Positions 9,001 through 39,757 of a DNA stretch of 64,000 bases are shown here, one piece after another. A program made the translations under genes and the position numbers. Numbering within the stretch: the first letter of the stretch is position 1; every line of letters begins with the position of its first letter. The notes beneath the pieces were generated by a model, which saw nothing but the letters and a program-made list of their open reading frames with translations, made no database searches and had not been told where the DNA came from. The DNA is from Heptranchias perlo (Eukaryota): the NCBI RefSeq assembly GCF_035084215.1, contig NW_027139268.1:372001-436000 (forward strand). Reading direction: 5' to 3'.

Positions 9001-12000
9001 AGGGAACTGACTGACACATCTCTCAGGATAGAGTTACAGGGAACTGACTGACACATCTCTCAGGATAGGGTGACAGGGAACTGACTGACACATCTCTCAG
9101 GATAGGGTGACAGGGAACTGACTGACACATCTCTCAGGATAGAGTTACAGGGAACTGACTGACACATCTCTCAGGATAGGGTTACAGGGAACTGACTGAC
9201 ACATCTCTCAGGATAAAGTTACAGGGAACTGACTGACACATCTCTCAGGATAAAGTTACAGGGAACTGACTGACACATCTCTCAGGATAGGGTTACAGGG
9301 AACTGACTGACACATCTCTCAGGATAGGGTTACAGGGAACTGACTTGACACATCTCTCAGGATAGAGTTACAGGGAACTGTCTGACACATCTCTCAGGAT
9401 AGAGTTACAGGGAACTGACTGACACATCTCTCAGGATAGAGTTACAGGGAACTGACTGACACATCTCTCAGGATAGAGTTACAGGGAACTGACTGACACA
9501 TCTCTCAGGATAGAGTTACAGGGAACTGACTGACACATCTCTCAGGATTGGGTGACAGGGAACTGACTGACACATCTCTCAGGATAAAGTTAGAGGGAAC
9601 TGACTGACACATCTCTCAGGATAGAGTTACAGGGAACTGACTGACACATATCTCAGGATAGAGTTCCAGGGAACTGACTGACACATCTCTCAGGATAGGG
9701 TGACAGGGAACTGACTGACACATCTCTCAGGATAGGGTGACAGGGAACTGACTGACACATCTCTCAGGATAGAGTTACAGGGAACTGACTGACACATCTC
9801 TCAGGATAGGGTTACAGGGAACTGACTGACACATCTCTCAGGATAGAGTTACAGGGAACTGACTGACACATCTCTCAGGATAGGGTTACAGGGAACTGAC
9901 TGACACATCTCTCAGGGTAGGGTTACAGGGAACTGACTGACACATCTCTCAGGATAAAGTTACAGGGAACTGTCTGACACATCTCTCAGGATAGGGTTAC
10001 AGGGAACTGACTGACACATCTCTCAGAATAGAGTTACAGGGAACTGACTGACACATCTCTCAGGATAGGGTTACAGGGAACTGACTGACACATCTCTCAG
10101 GATAGGGTTACAGGGAACTGACTGACACATCTCTCAGGATAAAGTTACAGGGAACTGACTGACACATCTCTCAGGATAAAGTTACAGGGAACTGACTGAC
10201 ACATCTCTCAGGATAGAGTTACAGGGAACTGACTGACACATCTCTCAGGATAGAGTTACAGGGAACTGACTGACACATCTCTCAGGATAGAGTTACAGGG
10301 AACTGACTGACACATCTCTCAGGATAGGGTGACAGGGAACTGACTGACACATCTCTCAGGATAAAGTTAGAGGGAACTGACTGACACATCTCTCAGGATC
10401 GGGTTACAGGGAACTGACTGACACATCTCGCAGGATAGAGTTACAGGGAACTGACTGACACATCTCTCAGGATAGGGTTACAGGGAACTGACTGACACAT
10501 CTCTCAGGATAGAGTTACAGGGAACTGACTGACACATCTCTCAGGATAGAGTTACAGGGAACTGACTGACACATCTCTCAGGATAGAGTTACAGGGAACT
10601 GACTGACACATCTCTCAGGATAGGGTTACAGGGAACTGACTGACACATCTCTCAGGATAAAGTTACAGGGAACTGACTGACACATCTCTCAGGATAGGGT
10701 TACAGGGAACTGACTGACACATCTCTCAGGATAGGGTTACAGGGAACTGACTGACACATCTCTCAGGATAGGGTTACAGGGAACTGACTGACACATCTCT
10801 CAGGTTAGGGTGCCGGTGAACTGACTGACACATCTCTCAGGATAGAGTTGCAGGGAACTTACTGGCACATCTCTCAGGATAGAGTTACAGGGAACTGACT
10901 GACACATCTCTCAGGATAGAGTTGCAGGGAACTGACTGACACATCTCTCAGGATAGAGTTGCAGGGAACTGACTGACACATCTCTCAGGATAAAGTTACA
11001 GGGAACTGACTGACACATCTCTCAGGATAGAGTTACAGGGAACTGACTGACACATCTCTCAGGATAGGGTTACAGGGAACTGACTGACACATCTCTCAGG
11101 ATAAAGTTACAGGGAACTGACTGACACATCTCTCAGGATAGGGTTACAGGGAACTGACTGACACATCTCTCAGGATAGGGTTACAGGGAACTGACTGTCA
11201 CATCTCTCAGGATCGAGTTCCAGGGAACTGACTGACACATCTCTCAGGATAGAATTACAGGGAACTGACTGACACATCTCTCAGGATAGAATTACAGGGA
11301 ACTGACTGACACATCTCTCAGGATAGAATTACAGGGAACTGACTGACACATCTCTCAGGATAGAATTACAGGGAACTGACTGACACATCTCTGAGGATAG
11401 GGTTACAGGGAACTGACTGACACATCTCTCAGGATAAAGTTACAGGGAACTGACTGACGCATCTCTCAGGATAGGGTTACAGGGAACTGATTGACACATC
11501 TCTCAGGATAGAGTTACAGGGAACTGACTGACACATCTCTCAGGATAGAGTTACAGGGAACTGACTGACACATCTCACAGGATAGAGTTACAGGGAACTG
11601 ACTGAAAATCTCTCAGGATAGAGTTACAGGGAACTGACTGACACATCTCTCAGGATAGGGTTACAGGGAACTGACTGACACATCTCTCAGGATAGAGTTA
11701 CAGGGAACTGACTGACACATCTCTCAGGATAGAGTTACAGGGAACTGACTGACACATCTCTCAGGATAGGGTTACAGGGAACTGACTGACACATCTCTCA
11801 GGATAGAGTTACAGGGAACTGACTGACACATCTCTCAGGATAAAGTTACAGGGAACTGACTGACACATCTCTCAGGATAGAGTTACAGGGAACTGACTGA
11901 CACATCTCTCAGGATAGGGTTACAGGGAACTGACTGACACATCTCTCAGGATAAAGTTACAGGGAACTGACTGACACATCTCTCAGGATAAAGTTACATG

Positions 12001-14084
12001 GAACTGACTGACACATCTCTCTGGATAGAGTTGCAGGGAACTGACTGACACCTCCCTCAGGATAGAGTTACAGGGAACAGACTGACACATCTCTCAGGAT
12101 AGGGTTACAGGGAACTGACTGACACATCTCTCAGGATAGAGTTACAGGGAACTGACTGACACATCTCTCAGGATAAAGTTACAGGGAACTGACTGACACA
12201 TCTCTCAGGATCGAGTTACAGGGAACTGACTGACACATCTCTCAGGATAGGGTGACAGGGAACTGACTGACACATCTCTCAGGATAGAGTTACAGGGAAC
12301 TGACTGACACATCTCTCAGGATAGGGTGACAGGGAACTGACTGACACATCTCTCAGGATAGGGTTACAGGGAACTGACTGACACATCTCTCAGGATAGGG
12401 TTACAGGGAACTGACTGACACATCTCTCAGGATAAAGTTACAGGGAACTGACTGACACATCTCTCAGGATAGGGTGACAGGGAACTGACTGACACATCTC
12501 TCAGGATAGAGTTACAGGGAACTGACTGACACATCTCTCAGGATAGGGTGACAGGGAACTGACTGACACATCTCTCAGGATAGAGTTACAGGGAACTGAC
12601 TGACACATCTCTCAGGATCGGGTTACAGGGAACTGACTGACACATCTCTCAGGATAGGGTTACAGGGAACTGACTGACACATCTCTCAGGATAGGGTGAC
12701 AGGGAACTGACTGACACATCTCTCAGGATAGAGTTACAGGGAACTGACTGACACATCTCTCAGGATAGGGTGACAGGGAACTGACTGACACATCTCTCAG
12801 GATAGGGTTACAGGGAACTGACTGACACATCTCTCTGGATAGGGTTACAGGGAACTGACTGACACATCTCTCAGGATAGGGTTACAGGGAACTGACTGAC
12901 ACATCTCTCAGGATAGAGTTACAGGGAACTGACTGACACATCTCTCAGGATAAAGTTACAGGGAACTGACTGACACATCTCTCAGGATAGAGTTACAGGG
13001 AACTGACTGACACATCTCTCAGGATAGAGTTGCAGGGAACTGACTGACACATCTCTCAGGATAGAGTTACAGGGAACTGACTGACACATCTCTCAGGATA
13101 GGGTGACAGGGAACTGACTGACACATCTCTCAGGATAAAGTTAGAGGGAACTGACTGACACATCTCTCAGGATAGAGTTACAGGGAACTGACTGACACAT
13201 CTCTCAGGATAGAGTTACAGGGAACTGACTGACACATCTCTCAGGATAGGGTGACAGGGAACTGACTGACACATCTCTCAGGATAGGGTGACAGGGAACT
13301 GACTGACACATCTCTCAGGATAAAGTTACAGGGAACTGACTGACACATCTCTCAGGATAGAGTTACAGGGAACTGACTGACACATCTCTCAGGATAGAGT
13401 TACAGGGAACTGACTGACACATCTCTCAGGATAGGGTTACAGGGAACTGACTGACACATCTCTCAGGGTAGGGTTACAGGGAACTGACTGACACATCTCT
13501 CAGGATAAAGTTACAGGGAACTGTCTGACACATCTCTCAGGATAGGGTTACAGGGAACTGACTGACACATCACTCAGGATAGAGTTACAGGGAACTGACT
13601 GACACATCTCTCAGGATAGGGTTACAGGGAACTGACTGACACATCTCTCAGGATAGGGTTACAGGGAACTGACTGACACATCTCTCAGGATAAAGTTACA
13701 GGGAACTGACTGACACATCTCTCAGGATAAAGTTACAGGGAACTGACTGACACATCTCTCAGGATAGGGTTACAGGGAACTGACTGACACATCTCTCAGG
13801 ATAGGGTTACAGGGAACTGACTTGACACATCTCTCAGGATAGAGTTACAGGGAACTGACTGACACATCTCTCAGGATAGGGTTACAGGGAACTGACTGAC
13901 ACATCTCTCAGGATAGAGTAACAGGGAACTGACTGACACATCTCTCAGGATAGAGTAACAGGGAACTGACTGACACATCTCTCAGGATAGAGTTGCAGGG
14001 AACTGACTGACACATCTCTCAGGATAGAGTTGCAGGGAACTGACTGACACATCTCTCAGGATAGAGTTACAGGGAACTGACTGA
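1..14084. repeat. Satellite array, 37-bp unit TAGAGTTACAGGGAACTGACTGACACATCTCTCAGGA, about 380 copies, running off the left edge
   Basis: Direct 37-bp periodicity from base 1 (unit restarts at 38). Most variation is in the AGAG/AGGG/AAAG and TTAC/TGAC positions. Confidence 0.98.
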
Positions 14085-20300: not shown

Positions 20301-20420
20301 GTTCCAGGAAAAGAGAGTAAATGACAGACTGTGTGGTGAGCAGTGATCTGGACTTGGGAGTGTTCAGGGAACCCCTGCAATACACAGTCTAGAAAGAAAT
20401 GCGACAAATACTCTCTCCAG
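20301..20420 (+). pseudogene. TRIM pseudogene pre-PRY linker exon
   Basis: ttcctcag|...|gtaaac. Encodes VVSSDLDLGVFREPLQYTV*KEMRQILSP, the motif found in A33/NF7/TRIM35/TRIM69-type TRIMs, with the conserved Trp as TAG (20390-20392). Ends in phase 1. Confidence 0.85.
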
Positions 20421-22500
20421 GTAAACACCAATAGATATACCGCAATACACTCTCCCGGTAAACACCGATAGATATACCGCAATACACCCTCCTGGTAAAC
20501 ACCGATAGATATACCGCAATACACTCTCCCGGTAAACACCGATAGATATACGGCAATACACTCTCCCGGTAAACACCGATAGATATACCGCAATACACTC
20601 TCCCGGTAAACACCGATAGATATACGGCAATACACTCTCCCGGTAAACACTGATAGATATACCGCAATACACTCTCCCGGTAAACACAGATAGATATACC
20701 GCAATACACTCTCCCGGTAAACACCAATAGATATACTGCAATACACTCTCCCGGTAAACACCGATAGATATACCACAATACACTCTCCCGGTAAACACCG
20801 ATAGATATACCGCAATACACTCTCCCGGTAAACACCGATAGATATACCGCAAAACACTCTCCCGGTAAACACCGATAGAAAAACCGCAACACACTCTCCC
20901 GGTAAACACCGATAGATATACCGCAATACACTCTCCCGGTAAACACCAATAGATATACCGCAATACACTCTCCCGGTAAACACCGATAGATATACCGCAA
21001 TACACTCTCCCGGTAAACACCGATAGATATACCGCAATACACTCTCCCGGTAAACACCGATAGATATACCGCAATACACTCTCCCGGTAAACACCGATAG
21101 ATATACCGCAATGCACTCTCCCGGTAAACACCAATAGATATACCGCAATACACTCTCCCGGTAAACACCGATAGATATACCGCAATGCACTCTCCCGGTA
21201 AACACCGATAGATATACCGCAATACACTCTCCCGGTAAACACCGATAGATATACCGCAATACACTTTCCCGGTAAACACCGATAGATATACCGCAATACA
21301 CTCTCCCGGTAAACACCGATAGATATACCGCAATACACTCTCCCAGTAAACACCGATAGATATACCGCAATACACCCTCCTGGTAAACACCAATAGATAT
21401 ACCGCAATACACTCTCCCGGTAAACACCAATAGATATACCGCAATACACTCTCCCGGTAAACACCGATAAATATACCGCAATACACTCTCCCGGTAAACA
21501 CCGATAGATATACCGCAATACACTCTCCCGGTAAACACTGATAGATATATCGCAATACACTCTCCCGGTAAACACCAATAGATATACCGCAATACACTCT
21601 CCCGGTAAACACCAACAGATATACCGCAATACACTCTCCCGGTAAACACCAATAGATATACCGCAATACACTCTCCCGGTAAACACCAACAGATATACCG
21701 CAATACACTCTCCCGGTAAACACCAATAGATATACCACAATGCACTCTCCCGGTAAACACCAACAGATATACCGCAATGCACTCTCCCGGTAAACACCAA
21801 CAGATATACCGCAATGCACTCTCCCGGTAAACACCGATAAATATACCGCAATACACTCTCCCGGTAAACACCAACAGATATACCGCAATGCACTCTCCCG
21901 GTAAACACCAACAGATATACCGCAATGCACTCTCCCGGTAAACACCGATAGATATACCGCAATACACTCTCCCGGTAAACACCAATAGATATACCGCAAT
22001 ACACTCTCCCGGTAAACACCAACAGATATACCGCAATGCACTCTCCCGGGAAACACCAATAGATATACCGCAATACACTCTCCCGGTAAACACCAACAGA
22101 TATACCGCAATGCACTCTCCCGGTAAACACCGATAGATATACCGCAATACACTCTCCCGGTAAACACCAATAGACATACCGCATTACACTCTCCTGGTAC
22201 GCACCAACAGATATACCGCAATGCACTCTCCCGGTAAACACCGATAGATATACCGCAATACACCCTCCCGGTAAACACCAATAGATATACCGCAATACAC
22301 TCTCCTAGTTAGCACCGATAGATATACCATAAACCTCTCCCCTGGTAAACACTGGTAGATTTACCATAAACCTCTCCCCTGGTAAACACTGGTAGATTTA
22401 CCAAAAACATCTCCCCTGGTAAACACCAGTAGATTTACCATAAACCTCTCCCGTGGTGAACACTGGTAGATTTACCATAAACCTCTCCACTGGTGAACAC
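20405..22500. repeat. 37-bp satellite variant A GTAAACACCGATAGATATACCGCAATACACTCTCCCG (about 51 copies) plus transition units
   Basis: Direct periodicity. The first unit overlaps the TRIM exon end and donor. 22310-22500 holds units intermediate between variants A and B. Confidence 0.97.
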
Positions 22501-25500
22501 TGATAGATTTGCCCTAATCCCCTCTCTCGGTAAACACCGTTAGATTTACCCTAATCCCTTCTCTCCTGGTAAACACCGATAGATTTACCCTAATCCCCTC
22601 TCTCGGTAAACACCGATAGATTTACCCTAATCCCCTCTCTCGGTAAACACTGATAGATTTACCCTAATCCCCTCTCTCGGTAAACACTGATAGTTTTACC
22701 CTAATCCCCTCTCTCGGTAAACACTGATAGATTTACCCTAATCCCCTCTCTCGGTGAACACCGGTAGATTTACCCCAATCCCCTCTCTCGGTAAACACTG
22801 ATAGATTTACCCCATTCCCCTCTCTCGGTAAACATTGATAGATTTACCCTAATCCCCTCTCTCGGTAAACACCGATAGATTGACCAAAATCCCCTCTCTC
22901 GGTAAACACCGATAGATTTACCTAATCCCCTCTCTCCTGTTAAACACCGATAGATTGACCCTAATCCCCTCTATCGGTAAACACCGATAGATTTACCCTA
23001 ATCCAGTCTCTCTCGGTGAACACCGATAGATTGACCCTAATCCCCTCTCTCGGTAAACACCGATAGATTTACCCTAATCCCCTCTCTCCTGTTAAACACC
23101 GATAGATTTACCCCAATCCCCTCTCTCGGTAAACATTGATAGATTTACCCTAATCCCCTCTCTCGGTAAACACCGATAGATTGACCCTAATCCCCTCTCT
23201 CGGTAAACACCGATAGATTTACCTAATCCCCTCTCTCCTGTTAAACACCGATAGATTGACCCTAATCCCCTCTATCGGTAAACACCGATAGATTTACCCC
23301 AATCCCCGCTCTCGGTAAACACCGATAGATTTACCCTAATCCCCTTTCTCCTGGTAAACACCGATAGATTTACCCTAATCCCCTCTCTCCTGGTGAACAC
23401 CGATAGATTTAACCTAATCCCCTCTCTCGGTGAACACCGATAGATTTACCCTAATCCCCTCTCTCGGTAAACACCGATAGATTTACCGTAATCCCCTCTC
23501 TCGGTAAACACCGACAGATTTACCCTAATCCCCTCTCTCGGTGAACACCGATAGATTTACCCTAATCCCCTCTCTCGGTAAACACCGATAGATTTACCCT
23601 AATCCCCTCTCCTGGTAAACACCGATCGATTTACCCTAATCCCCTCACTCGGTAAACATCGATAGATTTACCCTAATCCCCTCTCCTGGTAAACACCGAT
23701 AGATTTACCCGAATCCCCTCTCTCGGTAAACACCGATAGATTTACCCTAATCCCCTCTCTCGGTAAACACTGATAGATTTACCCTAATCCCCTCTCTCGG
23801 TAAACATCGATAGATTTACCCTAATCCCCTCTCCTGGTAAACACCGATAGATTTACCCTAATCCCCTCTCTCGGTAAACATCGATAGATTTACCCTAATC
23901 CCCTCTCCTGGTAAACACCGATAGATTTACCCTAATCCCCTCTCTCGGTAAACACCGATAGATTTACCCTAATCCCCTCTCTCGGTGAACACCGATAGAT
24001 TTACCCCAATCCCCTCTTTCGGTAAACACCGATAGATTTACCCTAATCCCCTCTCTCGGTGAACACCGATAGATTTACCCTAATCCCCTCTCTCAGCAAA
24101 CACCGATAGATTTACCCTAATCCCCTCTCTCGGTAAACACCGATAGATTTACCCTAATCCCCTCTCTCGCTGAACACTGATAGATTTACCCTAATCCCCT
24201 CTCTCGGTAAACACCGATAGATTTACCCTAATTCCCTCTCTCGGTAAAAACCGATAGATTTACCCCAATCCCCTCTCTCGGTAAACATTGATAGATTTAC
24301 CCTAATCCCCTCTCTCGGTAAACACCGATAGATTGACCCTAATCCCCTCTCTCGGTAAACACCGATAGATTTACCCTAATCCCCTCTCTCCTGTTAAACA
24401 CCGATAGATTTACCCCAATCCCCTCTCTCGGTAAACATTGATAGATTTACCCTAATCCCCTCTCTCGGTAAACACCGATAGATTGACCCTAATCCCCTCT
24501 CTCGGTAAACACCGATAGATTTACCTAATCCCCTCTCTCCTGTTAAACACCGATAGATTGACCCTAATCCCCTCTATCGGTAAACACCGATAGATTTACC
24601 CCAATCCCCTCTCTCGGTAAACACCGATAGATTTACCCTAATCCCCTTTCTCCTGGTAAACACCGATAGATTTACCCTAATCCCCTCTCTCCTGGTGAAC
24701 ACCGATAGATTTACCCTAATCCCCTCTCTCGGTGAACACCGATAGATTTACCCTAATCCCCTCTCTCGGTAAACACCGATAGATTTACCGTAATCCCCTC
24801 TCTCGGTAAACACCGACAGATTTACCCTAATCCCCTCTCCTGGTAAACACCGATAGATTTACCCTAATCCCCTCACTCGGTAAACATCGATAGATTTACC
24901 CTAATCACCTCTCCTGGTAAACACCGATAGATTTACCCTAATCCCCTCTCTCGGTAAACACCGATAGATTTACCCTAATCCCCTCTCTCGGTAAACACTG
25001 ATAGATTTACCCTAATCCCCTCTCTCGGTAAACATCGATAGATTTACCCTAATCCCCTCTCCTGGTAAACACCGATAGATTTACCCTAATCCCCTCTCTC
25101 GGTAAACATCGATAGATTTACCCTAATCCCCTCTCCTGGTAAACACCGATAGATTTACCCTAATCCCCTCTCTCGGTAAACACCGATAGATTTACCCTAA
25201 TCCCCTCTCTCGGTGAACACCGATAGATTTACCCCAATCCCCTCTTTCGGTAAACACCGATAGATTTACCCTAATCCCCTCTCTTGGTAAACACCGATAG
25301 ATTTACCCTAATCCCCTCTCTCGGTAAACACCGATAGATTTACCCTAATCCCCTCTCTCCTGGTATACACCGATAGATTTACCCTAATCCACTCTCTCAG
25401 TAAACACCGATTGATTTACCCTAATCCCCTCTCTCGGTGAACACCGATAGATTTACCCTAATCCCCTCTCTCGGTGAACACCGATAGATTTACCCTAATC

Positions 25501-28500
25501 CCCTCTCTCCTGGTGAACACCGATAGATTTACCCCAATCCCCTCTCTCCTGGTGAACACCGATAGATTTACCCTAATCCCCTCTCCTGGTAAACACCGAT
25601 AGATTTACCCTAATCCACTCTCTCGGTGAACACCATTAGATTTACCCTAATCCCCTCTCTCGGTAAACACCAATAGATTTACCCTAATCCCCTCTCTCGC
25701 TGAACACCGATAGATTTACCCTAATCCCCTCTCTCAGTAAACACCGATAGATTTACCCTAATCCCCTCTCTCGGTGAACACCGATAGATTTACCCTAATC
25801 CCCTCTCTCGGTGAACACCGATAGATTTACCCTAATCCCCTCTCTCAGTAAACACCGATAGACTGACCCTAATCCCCTCTCTCGGTGAACACCGATAGAT
25901 TTACCCTAATCCCCTCTCTCGGTGAACACCGATAGATTGACCCTAATCCCCTCTCTCGGTGAACACCGATAGATTTACCCTAATCCCCTCTCTCGGTGAA
26001 CACCGATAGAGTTACCCTAATCCCCTCTCTCGCTGAACACCGATAGATTTACCCTAATCCCCTCTCTCGGTAAACACCGATAGATTTAACCTATTCCCCT
26101 CTCTCGGTGAACACCGATAGATTTACCCTAATCCACTCTCTCAGTGAACACCGATAGATTTACCCCAATCCCCTCTCTCGGTGAACACCGATAGATTTAC
26201 CCTAATCCCCTCTCTCGGTAAACACTGATAGTTTTACCCTAATCCCCTCTCTCGGTAAACACTGATAGATTTACCCTAATCCCCTCTCTCGGTGAACACC
26301 GGTAGATTTACTCCAATCCCCTCTCTCGGTAAACACTGATAGATTTACCCCATTCCCCTCTCTCGGTAAACATTGATAGATTTACCCTAATCCCCTCTCT
26401 CGGTAAACACCGATAGATTGACCCAAATCCCCTCTCTCCTGGTAAACACCGATAGATTTACCCCAATCCCCTCTCTTGGTAAACACCGATAGATTTACCC
26501 CAAACCCCTCTCTCGGTAAACACCGATAGATTTACCCTAATCCCCTCTCTCCTGGTGAACACCGATAGATTTACCCTAATCCCCTCTCTCGGTGAACACC
26601 AATAGATTTACCCTAATCCCCTCTCTCGGTAAACACCGATAGATTTACCCCAAACCCCTCTCTCGGTAAACACCGATAGATTTACCCTAATCCCCTCTCT
26701 CCTGGTGAACACCGATAGATTTACCCTAATCCCCTCTCTCGGTGAACACCGATAGATTTAACCGAATCCCCTCTCTCGGTAAACACCGATAGATTTACCC
26801 TAATCCCCTCTCTCCTGGTAAACACCGATAGATTTACCCCAATCCCCTCTCTCGGTAAACACCGATAGATTTACCCCAATCCCCTCTCTCTGTAAACACC
26901 GATAGATTTACCCTAATCCCCTCTATCCTGGTGAACACCGATAGATTTACCCTAATCCCATCTCTCTCGGTGAACACCGATAGATTTACCGTAATCCCCT
27001 CTCTCGGTAAACACCGACAGATTTACCCTAATCCCCTCTCTCGGTGAACACCGATAGATTTATCCTAATCCCCTCTCTCCTGGTAAACACCGATAGATTT
27101 ACCCTAATCCCCTCTCTCGGTAAACACCGATAGATTTACGCTAATCCCCTCTCCTGGTAAACACCGATAGATTTACCCTAATCCCCTCTCTCGGTAAACA
27201 TCGATAGATTTACCCTAATCCCCTCTCCTGGTAAACACCGATAGATTTACCCTAATCCCCTCTCTCGGTAAACACCGATAGATTTACCCTAATCCCCTCT
27301 CTCGGTAAACACCGATAGATTTACCCCAATCCACTCTCTCGGTAAACACCGATAAATTGACCCCAATCCCCTATCTCGGTAAACACCGATAGATTTACCC
27401 TAATCCCCTCTCTCGGTGAACACCGATAGATTTACCCTAATCCCATCTCTCAGTAAACACCGATAGATTTACCCTAATCCCCTCTCTCGGTAAACACCGA
27501 TAGATTTACCCTAATCCCCTCTCTCGGTGAACACTGATAGATTTACCCTAATCCCCTCTCTCGGTAAACACCGATAGATTTACCCTAATCCCCTCTCTCG
27601 GTGAACACTGATAGATTTACCCTAATCCCCTCTCTCGGTAAACACTGATAGATTTACCCTAATCCCCTCTCTCGGTAAACACCGATAGATTTACCCTAAT
27701 CCCCTCTCTCCTGGTAAACACCGATAGATTTACCCCAATCCCCTCTCTCGGTAAACACCGATAGATTTACCCTAATCCCCTCTCTCCTGGTAAACACCGA
27801 TAGATTTACCCTAATCCCCTCTCTCGGTAAACACCGATAGATTCTAATCCCCTCTCTCGGTAAACACCGATAGATTTACCCCAATCCCCTCTCTCGGTAA
27901 ACACCGATAGATTTACCCTAATCCCCTCTCTCGGTGAACACCGATAGATTTACACTAATCCCCTCTCTCCTAGTGAACACCGATAGATTTACCCTAATCC
28001 CCTCTCTCGGTGAACACCGATAGATTTACCCTAATCCCCTCTCTCGGTGAACACCGATAGATTTACCCTAATCCCCTCTCTCAGTAAACACCGATTGATT
28101 TACCCTAATCCCCTCTCTCCTGGTGAACACCGATAGATTTACCCCAATCCCCTCTCTCCTGGTGAACACCGATAGATTTACCCTAATCCCCTCTCCTGGT
28201 AAACACCGATAGATTTACCCTAATCCACTCTCTCGGTGAACACCATTAGATTTACCCTAATCCCCTCTCTCGGTAAACACCAATAGATTTACCCTAATCC
28301 CCTCTCTCGCTGAACACCGATAGATTTACCCTAATCCCCTCTCTCAGTAAACACCGATAGATTTACCCTAATCCCCTCTCTCGGTGAACACCGATAGATT
28401 GACCCTAATCCCCTCTCTCGGTGAACACCGATAGATTTACCCTAATCCACTCTCTCGGTGAACACCGATAGATTGACCCTAATCCCCTCTCTCGGTGAAC

Positions 28501-30026
28501 ACCGATAGATTGACCCTAATCCCCTCTCTCGGTGAACACCGATAGATTTACCCTAATCCCCTCTCTCGGTGAACACCGATAGATTTACCCTAATCCCCTC
28601 TCTCGGTGAACACCGATAGATTTACCCTAATCCCCTCTCTCGGTGAACACCGATAGAGTTACCCTAATCCCCTCTCTCGGTGAACACTGATAGATTTACC
28701 CTAATCCCCTCTCTCGGTGAACACCGATAGATTTACCCTAATCCCCTCTCTCAGTGAACACCGATAGATTTACCCCAATCCCCTCTCTCGGTGAACACCG
28801 ATAGATTTACCCTAATCCCCTCTCTCGGTAAACACTAATAGTTTTACCCTAATCCCCTCTCTCGGTAAACACTGATAGATTTACCCTAATCCCCTCTCTC
28901 GGTGAACACCGGTAGATTTACCCCAATCCCCTCTCTCGGTAAACACTGATAGATTTACCCCATTCCCCTCTCTCGGTAAACATTGATAGATTTACCCTAA
29001 TCCCCTCTCTCGGTAAACACCGATAGATTGACCCAAATCCCCTCTCTCCTGGTAAACACCGATAGATTTACCCCAATCCCCTCTCTCGGTAAACACCGAT
29101 AGATTTAACCGAATCCCCTCTCTCGGTAAACACCGATAGATTTACCCTAATCCCCTCTCTCCTGGTAAACACCGATAGATTTACCCCAATCCCCTCTCTC
29201 GGTAAACACCGATAGATTTACCCCAATCCCCTCTCTCGGTAAACAACGATAGATTTACCCTAATCCCCTCTCTCCTGGTGAACACCGATAGATTTACCCT
29301 AATCCCCTCTCTCGGTAAACACCGACAGATTTACCCTAATCCCCTCTCTCGGTGAACACCGATAGATTTACCCTAATCCCCTCTCTCCTGGTAAACACCG
29401 ATAGATTTATCCCAATCCCCTCTCTCGGTAAACATTGATAGATTTACCCTAATCCCCTCTCTCGGTAAACACCGATAGATTGACCCTAATCCCCTCTCTC
29501 GGTAAACACCGATAGATTTACCCTAATCCCCTATCTCCTGTTAAACACCGATAGATTGACCCTAATCCCCTCTATCGGTAAACACCGATAGATTTACCCC
29601 AATCCCCTCTCTCGGTAAACACCGATAGATTTACCCTAATCCCCTCTCTCCTGGTAAACACCGATAGATTTACCCTAATCCCCTCTCTCCTGGTGAACAC
29701 CGATAGATTTACCCTAATCCCCTCTCTCGGTGAACACCGATAGATTTACCCTAATCCCCTCTCTCGGTAAACACCGATAGATTTACCGTAATCCCCTCTC
29801 TCGGTAAACACCGACAGATTTACCCTAATCCCCTCTCTCGGTGAACACCGATAGATTTACCCTAATCCCCTCTCTCTGTAAACACCGATAGATTTACCCT
29901 AATCCCCTCTCCTGGTAAACACCGATAGATTTACCCTAATCCCCTCTCTCGGTAAACATCGATAGATTTCCCCTAATCCCCTCTCCTGGTAAACACCGAT
30001 AGATTTACCCTAATCCCCTCTCTCGG
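22500..30026. repeat. 37-bp satellite variant B GTAAACACCGATAGATTTACCCTAATCCCCTCTCTCG, left of the LTR element
   Basis: Direct periodicity, with occasional 36- and 39-bp units. Confidence 0.97.
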
Positions 30027-30698
30027 TGACGATCCGGATTCTTTCCCCTCAGTCTGGTTCAGTAATAACTGAAGTCGAATACATTTTAAAGTCCAACACA
30101 TCTTTAATAGCAGGGTTCTTAGTCTGCAGCATTGATTTGGACTCCTGATAGAGTCCCTCTATGCTGGCAGAGCAAGAACCAAAACATACAGAAATCCACA
30201 CGTTTTTATACAGATGAATAGGGTTGGAACATACTTAACGAGGGTCAACACCAATCATAAGCCGGGCATAGGTTGCCATGCGAGGTTACATTATTTCCGA
30301 CCAATCATAAATCGTCCATGTGCTGATCATGCTGCTGTTAGACATCAAAGGGGATAACTTCCTCACTTTCCAACTTGGAATGTTCTTCCCTGTTCCTTCT
30401 GTTCCTTATCTCCCAACCTGGAATGTCTTTCAACTTTGGCTAAGCTCGTTCCCTATATTGATCTGCCATAAACATGGAGACATTCAGACCAGTCCTTGAA
30501 TCACATCAAAGACCTATCATTGATAAGACAATGCAGGCCTGCTGACTAAGCAAACATATGGCCCAGCAGGAGGGCCAGGCCACTTGTATCAATCTCAGTT
30601 ACTAACTAATTAACCCTTTCTAACCATTTTGCATTCTGCTTCTTTGCCACGTAGGCATCTTAATATTTTACCGAAAACTGACCACGTAGGGATCCTCA
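30027..30698 (-). repeat. 3' LTR (672 bp)
   Basis: Matches 35523-36194 except for 2 substitutions seen by eye. Minus-strand TATAAAA near 30203-30209, ATTAAA near 30103-30108, and two CCAAT boxes. Confidence 0.97.
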
Positions 30699-30710
30699 TT
30701 CCCCCCTTTT
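30699..30710 (-). other. Polypurine tract
   Basis: Minus strand AAAAGGGGGGAA abutting the 3' LTR. Confidence 0.9.
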
Positions 30711-31262
30711 ATCATTTTATGATAACCAATTATTACGGTGCTCACTGGTTCTGCAGGTTCTGCAGTGCAGCAACATTTAAGTAAGCAATAAACTATAAGA
30801 ATTATAACAATGAATATGACTAGCCCTTGAACTGGAGAAGTCCCAATAGAACACAGACATGTTTCATCAATACGCCTTTGTACTCTTATCTGTTCTCAGG
30901 AACAGACTCCTTCTAAACATCTCTCAAGTAAGCTGCGAATGTCCTTGGTCAGCTAAACCTATTCATGTTAGTTTGAAAAGGCTAACATAGTCAAATATCC
31001 TATGGTGCTTTATATTTTGTTTCCAGCCTAACTGGACTGAATGGTACCTTTCAGACCATTTTACACCTGTGAATTGGTGCCCTCCCCATTATATCCCTTA
31101 ATCCAAATTCTCCCTACAATATCCCGTTAGATGCTGTACCTCATCTTAACCAGGTTCCCTTCGTGTTGGCCACCAGTCCGGGTGGAAGAGAGGCAGAGCA
31201 TCTGATAATCCTATCGAACTATAATTGTCTTCCCTTTTACATGCACCTTACCCCAGCGGGTG

Positions 31263-33960
31263 CTACTCCCGGTACCATTCAGATGTGTTCTTAGTTGAAA
31301 CCACAGAGACAATGGGGACATTCTCACCCAGGCTCTGTTTTACTGCCTTTGCCAAACCCTTCATCCTCTGCTTACATTTATTACATGCAATGAAAATCAA
31401 GAAGCACATTACAACAAACTGCACTACGACTAATACATATGAAACTAATCTAATCCAAAGATGGATCTGTATATTCAGTCCCAAATTCCAGAGGTCATTT
31501 CACCAGGTGGTGACTTTAATTTGGTCAATGTCATGCTTAATGTTGTTATTGTCCTGTTGTAGGTTATAATAAACCTTCTGGGAGAGGCGTATCTCCATTC
31601 GCAATGCTTCCAAGTATTTAGGCAACAGGGGTGTCAGATACCCAAATGTGTCCTGATATTCTTTTAAGTCCTTTCTGACATTCTCAGAAACTTGTAAGGT
31701 GGTGATGTTATGCCGGTGTATCTCTACCAGTTCCTCGGGTCCAATCCGAACCAGGACTTCAGAAATGGAGCAGAATTCTGGACTTAAAATATCACAAGTT
31801 AGATTGGCATATTTAAATGTTTTCAAATTAGTTGTAACACAGTATTCGCCCTCTCCGGCATATACCACTTAAGTGGGTTTTAGATCCGCCTCTAGGGCCT
31901 CCATGGTACAGTTAATATCCGGATTGGTACCGGTATTATTAAACCCACACTGTGCTTCTAGGCTGTGTCCAACACTATGTGGACACACAGTGACAACATG
32001 TCTAGTAACACATCCCTTTAATTTTGTTCCAGCCAATCAGCTTAAATCTACGTCCTCTAGTTCTTGAACCCTCTGCTAGGGGAAACAGGTACTTCCTGTC
32101 TACTCTATCTGGGCCCTTCATAATCTTGTAATTTTGTATCCATCGTGCGGATATCTTCTAAATATTGTTTCTCCCAATTTTATTGTTAACTGATGGGAAC
32201 CTAACCCTGAATTTTGGAAATCCAAATTACTGTGTCCCTCTTTACTTTAATTTCAGTCCTTTTGATTGATACCAGTGTTTCCTGACTGTTTCATTAATTA
32301 GTTGGTTTCTCTATGGACCATGTGTCAGTGCCTTGTTTAAAAGGATTTCTCACTCGCCTGGACCACATTAACCATTTTCCTGTTGTGCTGTTGTCAAGTA
32401 ACTGAGCCTGTCTGAGACTCATTCTTCACTGTATCTTCTTCATGTATCTCCGCATACTAGCAGCATCTCATAGGAATGAGCTTAGTGTTCTTGGATATTA
32501 ACTTTCTGCTGGCCAGTCTCTTCTTCCTCATGGTATTTCCGAACATTTTCCATGGCACACATCATATGTCCTGTAGGATTCAGTCCTGTAAAAGCAACTG
32601 GTTTGTTTAAAGAGTGGTTGCAATAGCTCACCAGGCCATAGGCCTTTGTAATCATGTTCTTCATCCTGATCTCCATTTCAGATGATGGCAACATACATTT
32701 GTATCTTTTATGTCCACTGTAGCCACTCTTAGGTTTTCAGGTTATCTTATCAAAAAGATCAGGGGTGTCTCGAGTGCTTATCTCCCCCTGCATGGTCCCG
32801 ATGTCAGGGTAGTGGCCAGGCTATTGAGTGTAGTTTTCTCATTATTCATTATAGGCAAGGACACAAATATCTCCACGAGAAAGCTATCAATTTACTATTC
32901 TCAACTACACTTTCCTGACTTCCACTAGATTGTATATTTATGCCAGATTGATTTTTTTATCATGCCCAATTCAATGACTTAGAGAAATTCCCATATCTCC
33001 CCACCTCGAGCATTCTGTCTCGGAAGACAACAAATAGGCTAAAACAAAACAAATCAAAATGTTTTCAAAAGAAGAGAATCAGGTTGATATCACCACGCTG
33101 TGACATTTGGTATCCGCTGATGTCTGCAGCTAAAGTCTTAAATCTTTAACACCACTGGATCGTTTCCTGCACCAAATTTCTCCAGCAAAGATTGCACCGT
33201 AACTTTGTAATTACTCTTGGTAATCCTGCACCATCAACACTCACGTGGTCCCAAAAAAAAAACCCAGGGTCACCTGTTTTAAAAGAAACACAGAAAATCC
33301 ATTGCGGCTCTTCTTGAGAGCCCAAGTGATTAATTTGTCAAATCTTCATTTATTATTTATTTATCCAAAGGAATAATCCCTATACCCGAAACAAATTTAG
33401 AAAACAAAACAGGAGAGAGAAATTGCCTAGTTCCACTCTCTCTGAAGCACGCAGCCTGTCTGAAATAAACACTGTCTCTTCCACATGCAGATGTATGCAG
33501 GGCTGCAGACTGGAATTTCTAACTCCAAGTCCTGATCTCTGTGTTTTCAAGATGTAACCACATTAAGCAGATATCATTAGCAGCCGCCTGCTAAGATACG
33601 TTATATTCCTCTTTTATTAATTTATTAATGGTTTGGGCATGTGTTTCTAGCACTGTAGCTATCCTTTGCAAATATATGGTCAGCATTTGATCCTCAGACA
33701 ATTCCTTATCTGTATTTTCATTTATCTTTTAATATATCTTTAATGCGAGACCCTAAATCTCTGACCTTTTGATCTAATGTTGTCAAATCAATGGTGTTAA
33801 CAACTGAGGCAAAGGCAGTTGCTATATCACTTATCACAGATCTTTACGTCTCCATATTTGCCTATCTCTTTTTACGATGTCCACCTCCATTCCATGTCGC
33901 TCTTTGTTTTAACACTTGAGTTAGGAGGTGTTGATCTAATTGTTGAGTTTTCTTAACATT
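31263..33960 (-). pseudogene. env: Decayed envelope / class I viral fusion glycoprotein (F-like)
   Basis: In order: RKKR furin site (33876-33865); SVISDIATAFASVVNTIDLTTLDQKV fusion-peptide-like segment; heptad IATVLETHAQTINKLIKEE. Then one frame 32036-31263 with two stops: Cys-rich GCVTRHVVTVCP..CGF..CT..YAGEGEYC..C..C, an HR2-like segment, W*NDLW, a TM segment (LVSYVLVVVQFVVMCFLIFIAC) and a basic tail. Confidence 0.7.
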
Positions 33961-35502
33961 CTCAATGCGAGTTATATAATTTGTCAGGGAAGGTCTCCCC
34001 TCTTTGGTCAGATCTTGTATTCTACTATTAATTTCAAATAAAATTGAATAGCCCCAGAACTTGTCAAAACTTCCTTATCATACTGTGGCAGGATAAAACT
34101 GATAGGCGTTTAGTACCCTGTGTCAGTACATAGCTCAAGTAATGGACTTCCAATTGTCTAACCTATGCTTCCTTTTCATATGATTTGTTTTACATTCCTT
34201 TCTTATCAATTTTTCACTGTAGCGTGAAAACTTATATCTCAGTCAATTGTAGCCTTTGGCATTTCCGAGTGATTGGGACAATTTTACCAATATAACCGAT
34301 ACCAATTATTACCTCATGTTCACCTGTGTTCTGGGCAAGCCTCAGACAGTTCTCAACCGACTGGGTCATTTCTATCTGTTTGAACTGGTCTTGGCAGGAC
34401 AGTCTGGCTTCTTGGGATGGAAGGGGTTAATATTAACTTGCTCTTGTGGTAGGAGTAACTTGATCCTTCTCCCTTTTGAGATTAAGTTCCCACCTTCAAA
34501 ATTTCACTTCACACAGGTTTGACTGATTTTTTACTTCTCACATTTGTGGATTGCTTTATACTATATTTTTGCACACTATTTTTTTACATACTTTTAGTGG
34601 ATGTGATTATAATCAACGCTCCGAGCTGTTCCAGCTTTCCGACTTTTCCTATCACAATGATACCAGATAGTTTTTTTAATGTATCCCGTTAATTTTTAAC
34701 CTTTTTAAACCACAGCCAATCACAAAATAAACATTCAAAATGCCAATTTTTTTGAAGATCCCATGTCTGGAATTTAACATGCCCACACTTTATAAGAACC
34801 AGAATTTAATAGGTCACTTAACCTCAATAACTCCAATTTTAATTCAGCAGTATCAGAATTAAACACACGACAAGACAGATACATTACACAAAGGAAGAAA
34901 ACACGCAAGTCACAGTAAGAAGGGGGCGTGGCCCACAACACCGACAAAAAAAACACTGATCAAGACAGGCTTTTTAAAGAGACAGTACACTTAAACAACA
35001 GAACCTTTCTTTTTCGGGTCTCTGTCTTTTAAACATTTGTCTAGTCACTTAATTCTATCCATTTTTTTTTACAGTACTGTCTCCATAAAGCAATTAGTTC
35101 TTTGGCTGAGGTACCTCTGTTATTTTTCCAAATTAATTCCTGAGCCTTTTTTGGCGGCATCTAAGTTTTTATCAATAGTTCCTGTTTATATCCAATCATC
35201 AGGAACTTAAACCCTGACTACCCTCAGTGATATTAACCACTGACCGACCGCTTACCAGTTATTCCCTCAGTGATATTAACCACTGACCTACCTGCTATTT
35301 CTGTGTATTCGCCAGACTGACCTGAATCTTGTAAGGACACCACACGAGTGTTAGCGATTGGACGATTCGTCGTCAGACTGACGGATTGGAGGAAAACCGA
35401 CGTAGTAAATTAAGACTACTTACATCGGGGCGCCATTTCCTTCCTCCGTGTCTGAGACAATCCGCCTCTTACTCCGCGAACTCTCGGTGAACGACCGTTA
35501 AG

Positions 35503-35520
35503 ATCCCACCGCTGCCACCA
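35503..35520 (-). other. Primer-binding site, tRNA-Leu
   Basis: Minus strand TGGTGGCAGCGGTGGGAT, an 18-nt complement of the vertebrate tRNA-Leu(AAG/TAG) 3' end, 2 nt from the 5' LTR. Confidence 0.9.
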
Positions 35521-35522
35521 AA

Positions 35523-36194
35523 TGACGATCCGGATTCTTTCCCCTCAGTCTGGTTCAGTAATAACTGAAGTCGAATACATTTTAAAGTCCAACACATCTT
35601 TAATAGCAGGGTTCTTAGTCTGCAGCATTGATTTGGACTCCTGATAGAGTCCCTCTATGCTGGCAGAGCAAGAACAAAAACATACAGAAATCCACACGTT
35701 TTTATACAGATGAATAGGGTTGGAACATACTTAACGAGGGTCAACACCAATCATAAGCCGGGCATAGGTTGCCATGCGAGGTTACATTATTTCCGACCAA
35801 TCATAAATCGTCCATGTGCTGATCATGCTGCTGTTAGACATCAAAGGGGATAACTTCCTCACTTTCCAACTTGGAATGTTCTTCCCTGTTCCTTCTGTTC
35901 CTTATCTCCCAACCTGGAATGTCTTTCAACTTTGGCTAAGCTCGTTCCCTATATTGATCTGCCATAAACATGGAGACATTCAGACCAGTCCTTGACTCAC
36001 ATCAAAGACCTATCATTGATAAGACAATGCAGGCCTGCTGACTAAGCAAACATATGGCCCAGCAGGAGGGCCAGGCCACTTGTATCAATCTCAGTTACTA
36101 ACTAATTAACCCTTTCTAACCATTTTGCATTCTGCTTCTTTGCCACGTAGGCATCTTAATATTTTACCGAAAACTGACCACGTAGGGATCCTCA
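35523..36194 (-). repeat. 5' LTR (672 bp)
   Basis: Direct repeat of 30027-30698, adjacent to the PBS. Confidence 0.97.
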
Positions 36195-39100
36195 TCGGTA
36201 AACACCGATAGATTTACCCTAATCCCCTCTCTCGGTAAACACTGATAGATTTACCCTAAACCCCTCTCTCAGTAAACATCGATAGATTTACCCTAATCCC
36301 CTCTCCTGGTAAACACCGATAGATTTACCCTAATCCCCTCTCTCGGTAAACATCGATAGATTTACCCTAATCCCCTCTCCTGGTAAACACCGATAGATTT
36401 ACCCAAATCCCCTCTCTCGGTAAACACCGATAGATTTACCCTAATCCCCTCTCTCGGTGAACACCGATAGATTTACCCTAATCCCCTCTCTCGGTAAACA
36501 CCAATAGATTTACCCTAATCCCCTCTCTCGGTGAACACCGATAGATTTACCCTAATGCCCTCTCTCAGGAAACACCGATAGATTTACCCTAATCCCCTCT
36601 CTCGGTAAACACCGATAGATTTACCCTAATCCCCTCTCTCCTGGTAAACACCGATAGATTTACCCCAATCCCCTCTCTCGGTAAACACCGATAGATTTAC
36701 CCTAATCCCCCCTCTCCTGGTAAACACCGATAGATTTACCCTAATCCCCTCTCTCGGTGAACACCGATAGATTTACCCTAATCCCCTCTCTCGGTGAACA
36801 CCGATAGATTTACCCTAATCCCCTCTCTCAGTAAACACCGATTGATTTACCCTAATCCCCTCTCTCCTGGTGAACACCGATAGATTTACCCCAATCCCCT
36901 CTCTCCTGGTGAACACCGATAGATTTACCCTAATCCCCTCTCCTGGTAAACACCGATAGATTTACCCTAATCCACTCTCTCGGTGAACACCATTAGATTT
37001 ACCCTAATCCCCTCTCTCGGTAAACACCAATAGATTTACCCTAATCCCCTCTCTCGCTGAACACCGATAGATTTACCCTAATCCCCTCTCTCGGTAAACA
37101 CCGATAGCTTTACCCTAATCCCCTCTCTCGGTGAACACCGATAGATTGACCCTAGTCCCCTCTCTCGGTGAACACCGATAGATTTACCCTAATCCCCTCT
37201 CTCGGTGAACACCGATAGATTGACCCTAATCCCCTCTCTCGGTGAACACCGATAGATTTACCCTAATCCCCTCTCTCGGTGAACACCGATAGATTTACCC
37301 TAATCCCCTCTCTCGGTGAACACCGATAGATTTACCCTAATCCCCTCTCTCGGTGAACACCGATAGAGTTACCCTAATCCCCTCTCTCGGTGAACACTGA
37401 TAGATTTACCCGAATCCCCTCTCTCGGTAAACACCGATAGATTTAACCTAATCCCCTCTCTCGGTGAACACCGATAGATTTACCCTAATCCCCTCTCTCA
37501 GTGAACACCGATAGATTTACCCCAATCCCCTCTCTCGGTGAACACCGATAGATTTACCCTAATCCCCTCTCTCGGTAAACACTAATAGTTTTACCCTAAT
37601 CCCCTCTCTCGGTAAACACTGATAGATTTACCCTAATCCCCTCTCTCGGTGAACACCGGTAGATTTACCCCAATCCCCTCTCTCGGTAAACACTGATAGA
37701 TTTACCCCATTCCCCTCTCTCGGTAAACATTGATAGATTTACCCTAATCCCCTCTCTCGGTAAACACCGATAGATTGACCCAAATCCCCTCTCTCCTGGT
37801 AAACACCGATAGATTTAACCGAATCCCCTCTCTCGGTAAACACCGATAGATTTACCCTAATCCCCTCTCTCCTGGTAAACACCGATAGATTTACCCCAAT
37901 CCCCTCTCTCGGTAAACACCGATAGATTTACCCCAATCCCCTCTCTCGGTAAACACCGATAGATTTACCCTAATCCCCTCTCTCCTGGTGAACACCGATA
38001 GATTTACCCTAATCCCCTCTCTCGGTGAACACCGATAGATTTACCGTAATCCCCTCTCTCGGTAAACACCGACAGATTTACCCTAATCCCCTCTCTCGGT
38101 GAACACCGATAGATTTACCCTAATCCCCTCTCTCCTGGTAAACACCGATAGATTTACCCTAATCCCCTCTCTCGGTGAACACTGATAGATTTACCCTAAT
38201 CCCCTCTCTCGGTAAACACCGATAGATTTACCCTAATCCCCTCTCTCGGTGAACACCGATAGATTTACCCCAATCCCCTCTCTCGGTGAACACCGATAGA
38301 TTTACCCTAATCCCCTCTCTCGGTAAACACCGATAGATTTACCCTAATCCCCTCTCTCGGTAAACACCGATAGATTTACCCTAATCCCCTCTCTCGGTGA
38401 ACACCGATAGATTGACCCTAATCCCCTCTCTCGGTGAACACCGATAGATTTACCCTAATCCCCTCTCTCGGTGAACACCGATAGATTTACCCTAATCCCC
38501 TCTCTCGGTGAACACCGATAGATTTACCCTAATCCCCTCTCTCGGTGAACACCGATAGAGTTACCCTAATCCCCTCTCTCGGTGAACACTGATAGATTTA
38601 CCCGAATCCCCTCTCTCGGTAAACACCGATAGATTTAACCTAATCCCCTCTCTCGGTGAACACCGATAGATTTACCCTAATCCCCTCTCTCAGTGAACAC
38701 CGATAGATTTACCCCAATCCCCTCTCTCGGTGAACACCGATAGATTTACCCTAATCCCCTCTCTCGGTAAACACTAATAGTTTTACCCTAATCCCCTCTC
38801 TCGGTAAACACTGATAGATTTACCCTAATCCCCTCTCTCGGTGAACACCGGTAGATTTACCCCAATCCCCTCTCTCGGTAAACACTGATAGATTTACCCC
38901 ATTCCCCTCTCTCGGTAAACATTGATAGATTTACCCTAATCCCCTCTCTCGGTAAACACCGATAGATTGACCCAAATCCCCTCTCTCCTGGTAAACACCG
39001 ATAGATTTAACCGAATCCCCTCTCTCGGTAAACACCGATAGATTTACCCTAATCCCCTCTCTCCTGGTAAACACCGATAGATTTACCCCAATCCCCTCTC

Positions 39101-39757
39101 TCGGTAAACACCGATAGATTTACCCCAATCCCCTCTCTCGGTAAACACCGATAGATTTACCCTAATCCCCTCTCTCCTGGTGAACACCGATAGATTTACC
39201 CTAATCCCCTCTCTCGGTGAACACCGATAGATTTACCGTAATCCCCTCTCTCGGTAAACACCGACAGATTTACCCTAATCCCCTCTCTCGGTGAACACCG
39301 ATAGATTTACCCTAATCCCCTCTCTCCTGGTAAACACCGATAGATTTACCCTAATCCCCTCTCTCGGTGAACACTGATAGATTTACCCTAATCCCCTCTC
39401 TCGGTAAACACCGATAGATTTACCCTAATCCCCTCTCTCGGTGAACACCGATAGATTTACCCCAATCCCCTCTCTCGGTGAACACCGATAGATTTACCCT
39501 AATCCCCTCTCTCGGTAAACACCGATAGATTTACCCTAATCCCCTCTCTCGGTAAACACCGATAGATTTACCCTAATCCCCTCTCTCGGTGAACACCGAT
39601 AGATTTACCCTAATCCCCTCTCTCGGTGAACACCGATAGATTTACCCTAATCCCCTCTCTCGGTGAACACCGATAGATTTACCCTAATCCCCTCTCTCGG
39701 TGAACACCGATAGATTTACCCTAATCCCCTCTCTCGGTGAACACCGATAGATTTACC
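36195..39757. repeat. 37-bp satellite variant B, right of the LTR element
   Basis: The array resumes in register after the TSD. Confidence 0.97.

Follow-up and report, generated by a model that had tools for sequence, protein, structure and literature searches.

What kind of retrovirus left the element at positions 30027 to 36194 of a 64,000-nt stretch of Heptranchias perlo DNA (the window; GCF_035084215.1, contig NW_027139268.1, positions 372,001 to 436,000), and where does its envelope gene come from? An initial annotation of the bare sequence described a young endogenous retrovirus (ERV) with an env gene in the style of the paramyxovirus F protein, and proposed a lokiretrovirus-like lineage. 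Our analysis points elsewhere: the element is quite probably a non-autonomous mosaic of three ERV lineages, and enzymes of a young class I family likely did the copying, in trans. Lineage A supplied a scrap of reverse transcriptase (RT), a broken F-type env and a fragment of a long terminal repeat (LTR), donor lineage B a gag scrap and an env anchor, and family C the LTRs, the leader and the polypurine tract (PPT). Lineage B is a class I ERV with gamma-type env only, and family C is likewise class I with gamma-type env. The window copy itself is a dead passenger of this young, abundant, three-way mosaic.

The outer frame of the element, on the minus strand like all features given below, is complete as first described. 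Two 672-bp LTRs with TG..CA ends (5' LTR, 35523..36194; 3' LTR, 30027..30698) enclose an 18-nt primer binding site (PBS; 35503..35520), which we take to be of the tRNA-Leu type, and a PPT region (30699..30730); sequence comparison assigns the 5' LTR and the PPT region to the family C type. The element is bordered by a 4-bp target site duplication (TSD), CCGA (30023..30026 and 36195-36198), and sits inside a 37-bp satellite array. Minisatellite arrays make up most of the window (1-14084, 20413-39757 and 40522-62920), among them two with a 37-bp unit, repeated about 380 and 350 times, and further arrays of 17-67-bp units. The claim that the element is young also holds, as its LTRs differ at 2 of 672 positions, which by our own arithmetic amounts to roughly 0.7 to 7 million years with two published substitution rates, 2.2e-9 (PMC7947760) and 2.2e-10 (PMC4422223). 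Nineteen sister copies were examined, 16 with two full LTRs and three without; the LTR pairs differed at 0-4 sites in 15 of these 16, and an exact 4-bp TSD was present in 13. The PBS takes the form seen in the window in 11/16 sister copies (L024-L042), a second form like that of parent A in 4/16 and a third in one, the second being presumably Leu-type and the third Ile-type. Such variation within one young family suggests that several tRNAs served as primers and that the primer sequence was then fixed.

In the 3.25-Gb genome G000 we obtained 1,854 candidates for the LTR, 1,951 for the 3' frame of env and 2,267 for an insert within env, of which 40, 150 and 40, respectively, were scored and all were highly similar. 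Judged on these sequence matches, the window element is likely one of about 1,900 near-identical genome copies. RT core and the middle of env were absent from all 20 family copies retrieved. The closest named homologues came from Heptranchias, Mustelus, Heterodontus, Chiloscyllium and Rhinoraja.

The sources of the interior were reached through a divergent copy (L023), which led to a longer subfamily and from there to pol-bearing relatives, after which the window element could be split into segments. Next to the PBS lies a family C leader with a short scrap of gag (35065..35502; 78-91% identical to C copies), followed by a decayed leader/gag region from a sister subfamily with two env genes (34175..35065; 84-92% to the two-env copies and 83-89% to B), for which Pfam returned nothing and within which 35003-35065 matches gag of donor B. 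A scrap of the RT palm and thumb of lineage A (33977..34170) is joined to env by a large deletion; the frame near 34130, considered at one point as an F2 strand, codes for RT, so that this idea was given up. The F-type env is in two pieces. Its 5' piece (33567..33955; 88-92% to pol-bearing A copies) holds an F2-like helix, the cleavage-site region, a fusion-peptide-like segment and heptad A, and is interrupted by stops and frameshifts and devoid of the N-terminal part. The 3' piece (31260..32036; 93-94% to A copies) holds Cys-rich beta domains, heptad B, a Trp-rich segment, the transmembrane segment (TM) and the tail, with in-frame stops common to most copies. These pieces of env are carried along as passengers, without coding for a working fusogen. 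Further downstream we found a fragment of the lineage A LTR corresponding to the start of U3 (30859..31125; 86-89% to the LTRs of L063, L065, L067, L069 and L077) and what remains of the TM anchor of another env, of gamma type and derived from donor B (30768..30860; 88-91% to 8/8 B copies). The RT scrap, the piece of a second type of LTR and the gamma-type anchor had all been overlooked in the first reading.

The order of env features given in the initial annotation (cleavage site, fusion-peptide-like segment, heptad, Cys-rich domain, heptad, Trp-rich segment, TM) was right, and the F-type env indeed has no CKS-17/CX6CC motif. The furin site RKKR reported there is a product of a local frameshift, the RxKR of the relatives lying a few codons downstream. 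The long Cys-rich domain between the heptads stood in part: a genuine domain with seven Cys occupies 32036-31500, and the 1.53 kb at 32037..33566 are a foreign, non-env insert. Since each frame of this insert contains 27-34 stops, Pfam finds no match in it and it takes the place of 133 env codons found in relatives, much of the claimed domain is not env. Its part at 33556-32986 is common to the two-env copies, and it ends in a 3' scrap of the RT of a long interspersed nuclear element (LINE) at about 32139-32037, which we assume to be CR1. Searches for its source with Pfam, local BLAST, the genome and the ESM Atlas returned only family copies and the LINE scrap. Foreign sequence stands after the cleavage site in copies of the L118 type and further downstream in the window, and such differing positions between subfamilies imply repeated template switching.

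To what kind of protein did these env pieces belong? An uninterrupted natural frame of 575 residues in copy L077 retrieved 43 relatives among 50% representatives, and eight of ten relatives checked were named, from sharks, a skate and frogs. Full-length relatives occur in bamboo shark and frogs (P0099, P0101, P0116 and P0128), some with an Ig-like N-terminal domain, and one frog cluster of 16 members, most of 677 residues, suggests a recent expansion. AlphaFold2, run on the env of a less decayed copy with 37 sequences, gave a model with a mean pLDDT of 69 and a pTM of 0.54; a single-sequence model (pLDDT 37) was discarded. The best PDB matches of the model in Foldseek were the postfusion F proteins of respiratory syncytial virus (RSV; 6.4e-10) and human parainfluenza virus 3 (hPIV3; 1.0e-9), and matches in BFVD included lispivirus-type and baculovirus F as well as the Env of WEHV1 (walleye epidermal hyperplasia virus 1; 1.3e-10), walleye dermal sarcoma virus (WDSV; 9.2e-7) and feline foamy virus (1.9e-4). 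Profile comparison with hhalign aligned the family with lokiretrovirus (loki) Env at 97.6% over 343 columns, WDSV Env at 97.0% over 451, foamy Env at 93.0% over 136 and snakehead retrovirus (SnRV) Env at 90.8% over 284, as against 11.5% over 23 columns for the murine leukemia virus (MLV) control. Scored against a hidden Markov model of the family, loki Env was the best single-sequence match (46.7-48.3 bits), followed by WDSV (26.4), foamy (9.9-18.4), SnRV (11.5) and MLV (4.8), with shuffled controls at most at -0.3 bits; the reference labels SnRV, WDSV, WEHV, foamy, gamma and loki were assigned here through RT matches to rows of the lokiretrovirus supplement. Pfam and PDB sequence searches with window fragments and single copies, as well as a word-based homologue search with the window env piece, gave nothing useful, and the env profile reached a best E of just 0.065 against PDB sequences.

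On this predicted fold and these profile matches, the F-like character claimed for the window env is upheld, and the env of the window element is F-type. For parent A, the env is predicted to be a class I fusion protein built on the paramyxo/pneumovirus F core; the Cys-rich N-terminal region in front of this core is likely receptor-binding. The further claim that this layout sets the element apart from epsilon-type Env did not survive, given the alignment with WDSV Env over 451 columns and the Foldseek matches to WEHV1 and WDSV. As the Envs of walleye epsilonretroviruses, snakehead retrovirus and foamy viruses share the layout, it is not diagnostic of lokiretroviruses. The element could nevertheless be read as what is left of a lokiretrovirus, which would be the first in cartilaginous fish: the env profile has its best single match in loki Env, and no cartilaginous fish is among the hosts listed in the available part of PMC7947760. 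A tree of env with 14 rows came out as a star and did not unite the A-type env with loki, and a pattern for loki RT found no match in G000, which is a weak test.

Pol-bearing copies of lineage A carry gag, protease, RT (YVDD), tether, RNase H and integrase between LTRs, with PBS, PPT and F-type env, and Pfam recognised RVP, RVT_1, RNase_H and rve in them. Their LTR of about 705 bp is of a type of its own, and copy L063 has a 5-bp TSD. A deleted A copy (L065; G000:C33:29744214-29754213) has pieces of gag, RT and env in one open frame of 886 codons. A young sister family of A with long open pol (L079; G000:C11:82834361-82844360; 56% RT identity) has only a divergent gamma-type env in place of the F-type env.

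The first RT trees, built without loki rows, were unresolved, and approximately unbiased (AU) tests on them gave 0.19 for A with SnRV, 0.048 for A with foamy viruses and 0.27 for A with gypsy; parent and gypsy together were not rejected, and loki references were needed. We then used a tree of 31 rows and 406 columns that included three loki-motif loci (L154-L156) and left out seven of 35 earlier rows (one WEHV, two gamma, two foamy, P0009 and L146). The three loci are near-complete lokiretrovirus-type elements on metagenome contigs, probably host fish DNA. In this tree the loki rows formed a clade without parent A (100/100), a branch supported at 100/99 split loki and gypsy from all retroviruses, A included, and A with its shark relatives joined class I at 95/95. 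The AU test gave p=2.8e-6 for A with loki and p=0.04 for A with SnRV. The RT motif is PQG in A and PFG in 24/24 loki rows, compared by eye in the supplement of PMC7947760, and BLAST identity of the A RNase H was 40-44% to gamma/epsilon, 22-27% to foamy and 24-25% to loki, whose own RNase H is described as grouping with that of foamy viruses (PMC7947760). For the integrase, which in lokiretroviruses is related to CGIN1, the comparison covered retroviral sequences: that of A was 38% identical to loki (179 bits), 42% to WEHV (188 bits) and about 50% to fish ERVs.

On RT sequence, parent A lies inside Retroviridae and is not a lokiretrovirus; a loki origin of pol is already largely refuted, and a lokiretrovirus remnant is highly improbable as an account of the element. 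Parent A is not a foamy virus either: the foamy rows formed a clade that excluded it (100/100), and the RNase H of A is not of the foamy type. The loki-like lineage proposed in the initial annotation is contradicted by the 100/99 branch and the AU test; its alternative, an otherwise unclassified lineage, may yet apply, as the parent does not go firmly with SnRV.

It is conceivable, at somewhat less than an even chance, that parent A belongs to the clade of snakehead retrovirus (Huo, class III), like CmiERV lineage I, in which such an env would be ordinary. SnRV was the best named RT BLAST match of A (41% compared to 34-39% for others), the envs have cysteines and layout in common, a 5-bp TSD and TGT..ACA ends agree with the description of class III (PMC8278194), and SnRV-like ERVs are known from elephant shark (PMC4422223). 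However, the tree with loki as outgroup put A with class I rather than with SnRV, a clade of A and SnRV was recovered in none of three RT trees, and AU p was 0.04 with loki rows, though 0.19 without. SnRV also sits on a long branch, and CmiERV, ERV-L/S and SSSV/ZFERV were outside the rows of the tree.

How lineage A sequence came to lie inside class I ends is suggested by the sister subfamily. In its longer copies a second open reading frame of about 474 codons stands directly behind the F-type env, with CXXC in the surface subunit (SU), RVKR, an immunosuppressive domain (ISD), CX6CC and TM (seen in L052 and L046), and it matches Pfam TLV_coat (E=7.8e-14). Both envs were found in tandem at 22 of 86 classified G000 loci, a count that is no genome frequency since these loci were picked by similarity; RT core was present at none of the 22. 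Five of the 86 loci have lineage A RT with F-type env only, and the class I loci either lack env or have just the gamma type. The gamma env and the LTR of the chimeras recur in donor B, a class I ERV that also has gag and pol, and the RT of B and of family C fell in the class I (gamma/epsilon) clade at 100/99-100. TSDs of 4 bp, as expected of class I, were seen in L127, L146 and L153, and 4/5 two-env copies had a 4-bp TSD as well.

This subfamily might descend from a replication-competent retrovirus that used both envelopes, as the two envs stand in tandem on the same strand within one LTR-bounded unit wherever LTRs were seen, LTR pairs are up to 99.5% identical and the gamma env frame is uninterrupted in several copies. 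We consider such a virus unlikely. Every pol-bearing copy has a single env (five A loci, and the B and C loci), and a piece of the A LTR lies between the two envs of the chimeras, as expected of a recombination scar, while the N-terminal part of the F-type env is missing from every chimeric copy inspected. Since the LTR piece and the lost N-terminus point to a scar rather than a two-envelope virus, the two-env subfamily would most likely be a recombination relic, moved in trans by a class I integrase. The tandem of F-type and gamma-type env is a new element of this analysis; we found no report of such an ERV in the part of the literature searched, though the supplements of the anamniote Env preprint may list these lineages. 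XTERV1 reportedly carries two env genes, and tandem env as such is thus perhaps not new.

Family C supplies the ends of the mosaic. The LTRs of class I copies L138-L152 are 87-90% identical to the window LTR overall and 93-94% over about 500 bp. Many near-identical copies belong to this family (L138-L153). Their gag is an open frame of 643 codons, and some also have pol and gamma-type env open; the LTR pairs are 98-99.7% identical within a copy, which speaks for recent activity. For the three-way mosaic we propose that co-packaged RNAs of A and B would first have undergone template switching, placing the 3' half of A inside B LTRs upstream of B env and yielding the two-env subfamily. Deletions and foreign insertions may then have followed, and another switch, at the start of gag and the tail of env, would have given the RNA C-type ends. 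With the LTR, packaging leader and PPT of C, this RNA could have been packaged, reverse-transcribed and integrated by C-type proteins, leaving a 4-bp TSD and ending in a burst to about 1,900 copies. The help of C-type proteins is the most likely course, judged from sequence features: the element has no coding capacity, and has C-type ends and a 4-bp TSD.

Several points weigh against this account of the element and of its env. The helper is a candidate: with the nearest C LTRs found just 87-90% identical overall, an unsampled subfamily of C may have acted instead. The order of the recombination steps was deduced from shared junctions and not from a tree test, the account does not explain where the insert came from, the copy numbers are first-look candidates and no census, and the 5-bp TSD of A is based on one clean copy. 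As to the env, the TM-scores of the modelled fold matches were just 0.38-0.45 with large rmsd, and Pfam Fusion_gly (PF00523) matched none of the env fragments; PF00523 also had no match in G000, where the controls were silent too, so that this search is uninformative.

Lineage A shares traits with several known groups. Like lokiretroviruses it combines an F-type Env with RxKR, fusion peptide, coiled coils and TM with a tether and RNase H (PMC7947760), but it differs from them in the RT and RNase H characters given above, in the long Cys-rich N-terminal extension of its env and in that no smc gene was seen in the loci read. ERVs of the SnRV/Huo clade have, besides the best named RT match, an F-type env that is extended at the N terminus and has Cys/Pro/Gly columns in common with that of A (PMC12193657; PMC6001957; PMC4422223), whereas their env is about 15-18% identical to that of A, no clade with SnRV was obtained and no 3' open reading frames were seen in A. 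With WDSV and WEHV, A shares an Env that aligns over the whole ectodomain, and donors B and C share class I membership; A itself has its RT outside the gamma/epsilon clade and no accessory genes were seen in it. Foamy Env has an F-like core and a TM beta domain that aligns with that of A (PMC11468914), although A has non-foamy RT and RNase H, and no large insert separates the F2-like strand from the cleavage site in its Env. Mosaic structure, gain or decay of env and intragenomic spread are also known from recKoRV/PhER, XtERV-S and ERV-SA.a-Ppe (PMC10536682; PMC8278194; 10.1101/2021.11.23.469661), as are env swaps between classes, while the elements described here differ by two structurally unrelated env classes in tandem and by three contributing lineages.

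An F-like Env has already been described for lokiretroviruses (PMC7947760) and foamy viruses (PMC11468914), and elephant shark is known to harbour SnRV-like and epsilon-like ERVs (PMC4422223; PMC4977317; PMC6001957). Epsilon Env has no place in the beta/gamma classification, and modelling of its SU was unsuccessful (10.1101/2021.11.05.467493). No paper in the literature searched attributes the F fold to epsilon or SnRV Env.

The window copy is thus an ordinary dead passenger. What gives the finding its value is that a family of F-type env is attached to an ordinary retroviral pol, together with the chimeras in which two envs stand in tandem. With ends borrowed from another family, a broken mosaic of three lineages likely spread to about two thousand recent copies, and the genome holds different env states side by side, including two unrelated envelope classes in tandem. 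More tentatively, and as a possibility that we would not yet call probable, lineage A may be a so far unnamed lineage of retroviruses that occurs in sharks, rays and frogs, branches just outside class I and kept the ancestral F-type env, with env replacement caught in progress and gamma-type env acquired later and repeatedly. If so, F-type only (A), tandem (the chimeric subfamily) and gamma-type only (L079, the sister of A) would form a replacement series; retroviral envelopes would go back to the F-type Env, whose core loki, foamy, snakehead and walleye viruses have in common, and the gamma-type Env would be a later replacement acquired more than once. Seeing no likeness of loki Env to other retroviral Envs, Wang and Han kept four scenarios open for how retroviral env arose (PMC7947760). 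The shark and frog env family ties the Envs of loki, walleye epsilon, snakehead and foamy viruses into one profile and stands on an ordinary retroviral pol, so that these scenarios become testable.

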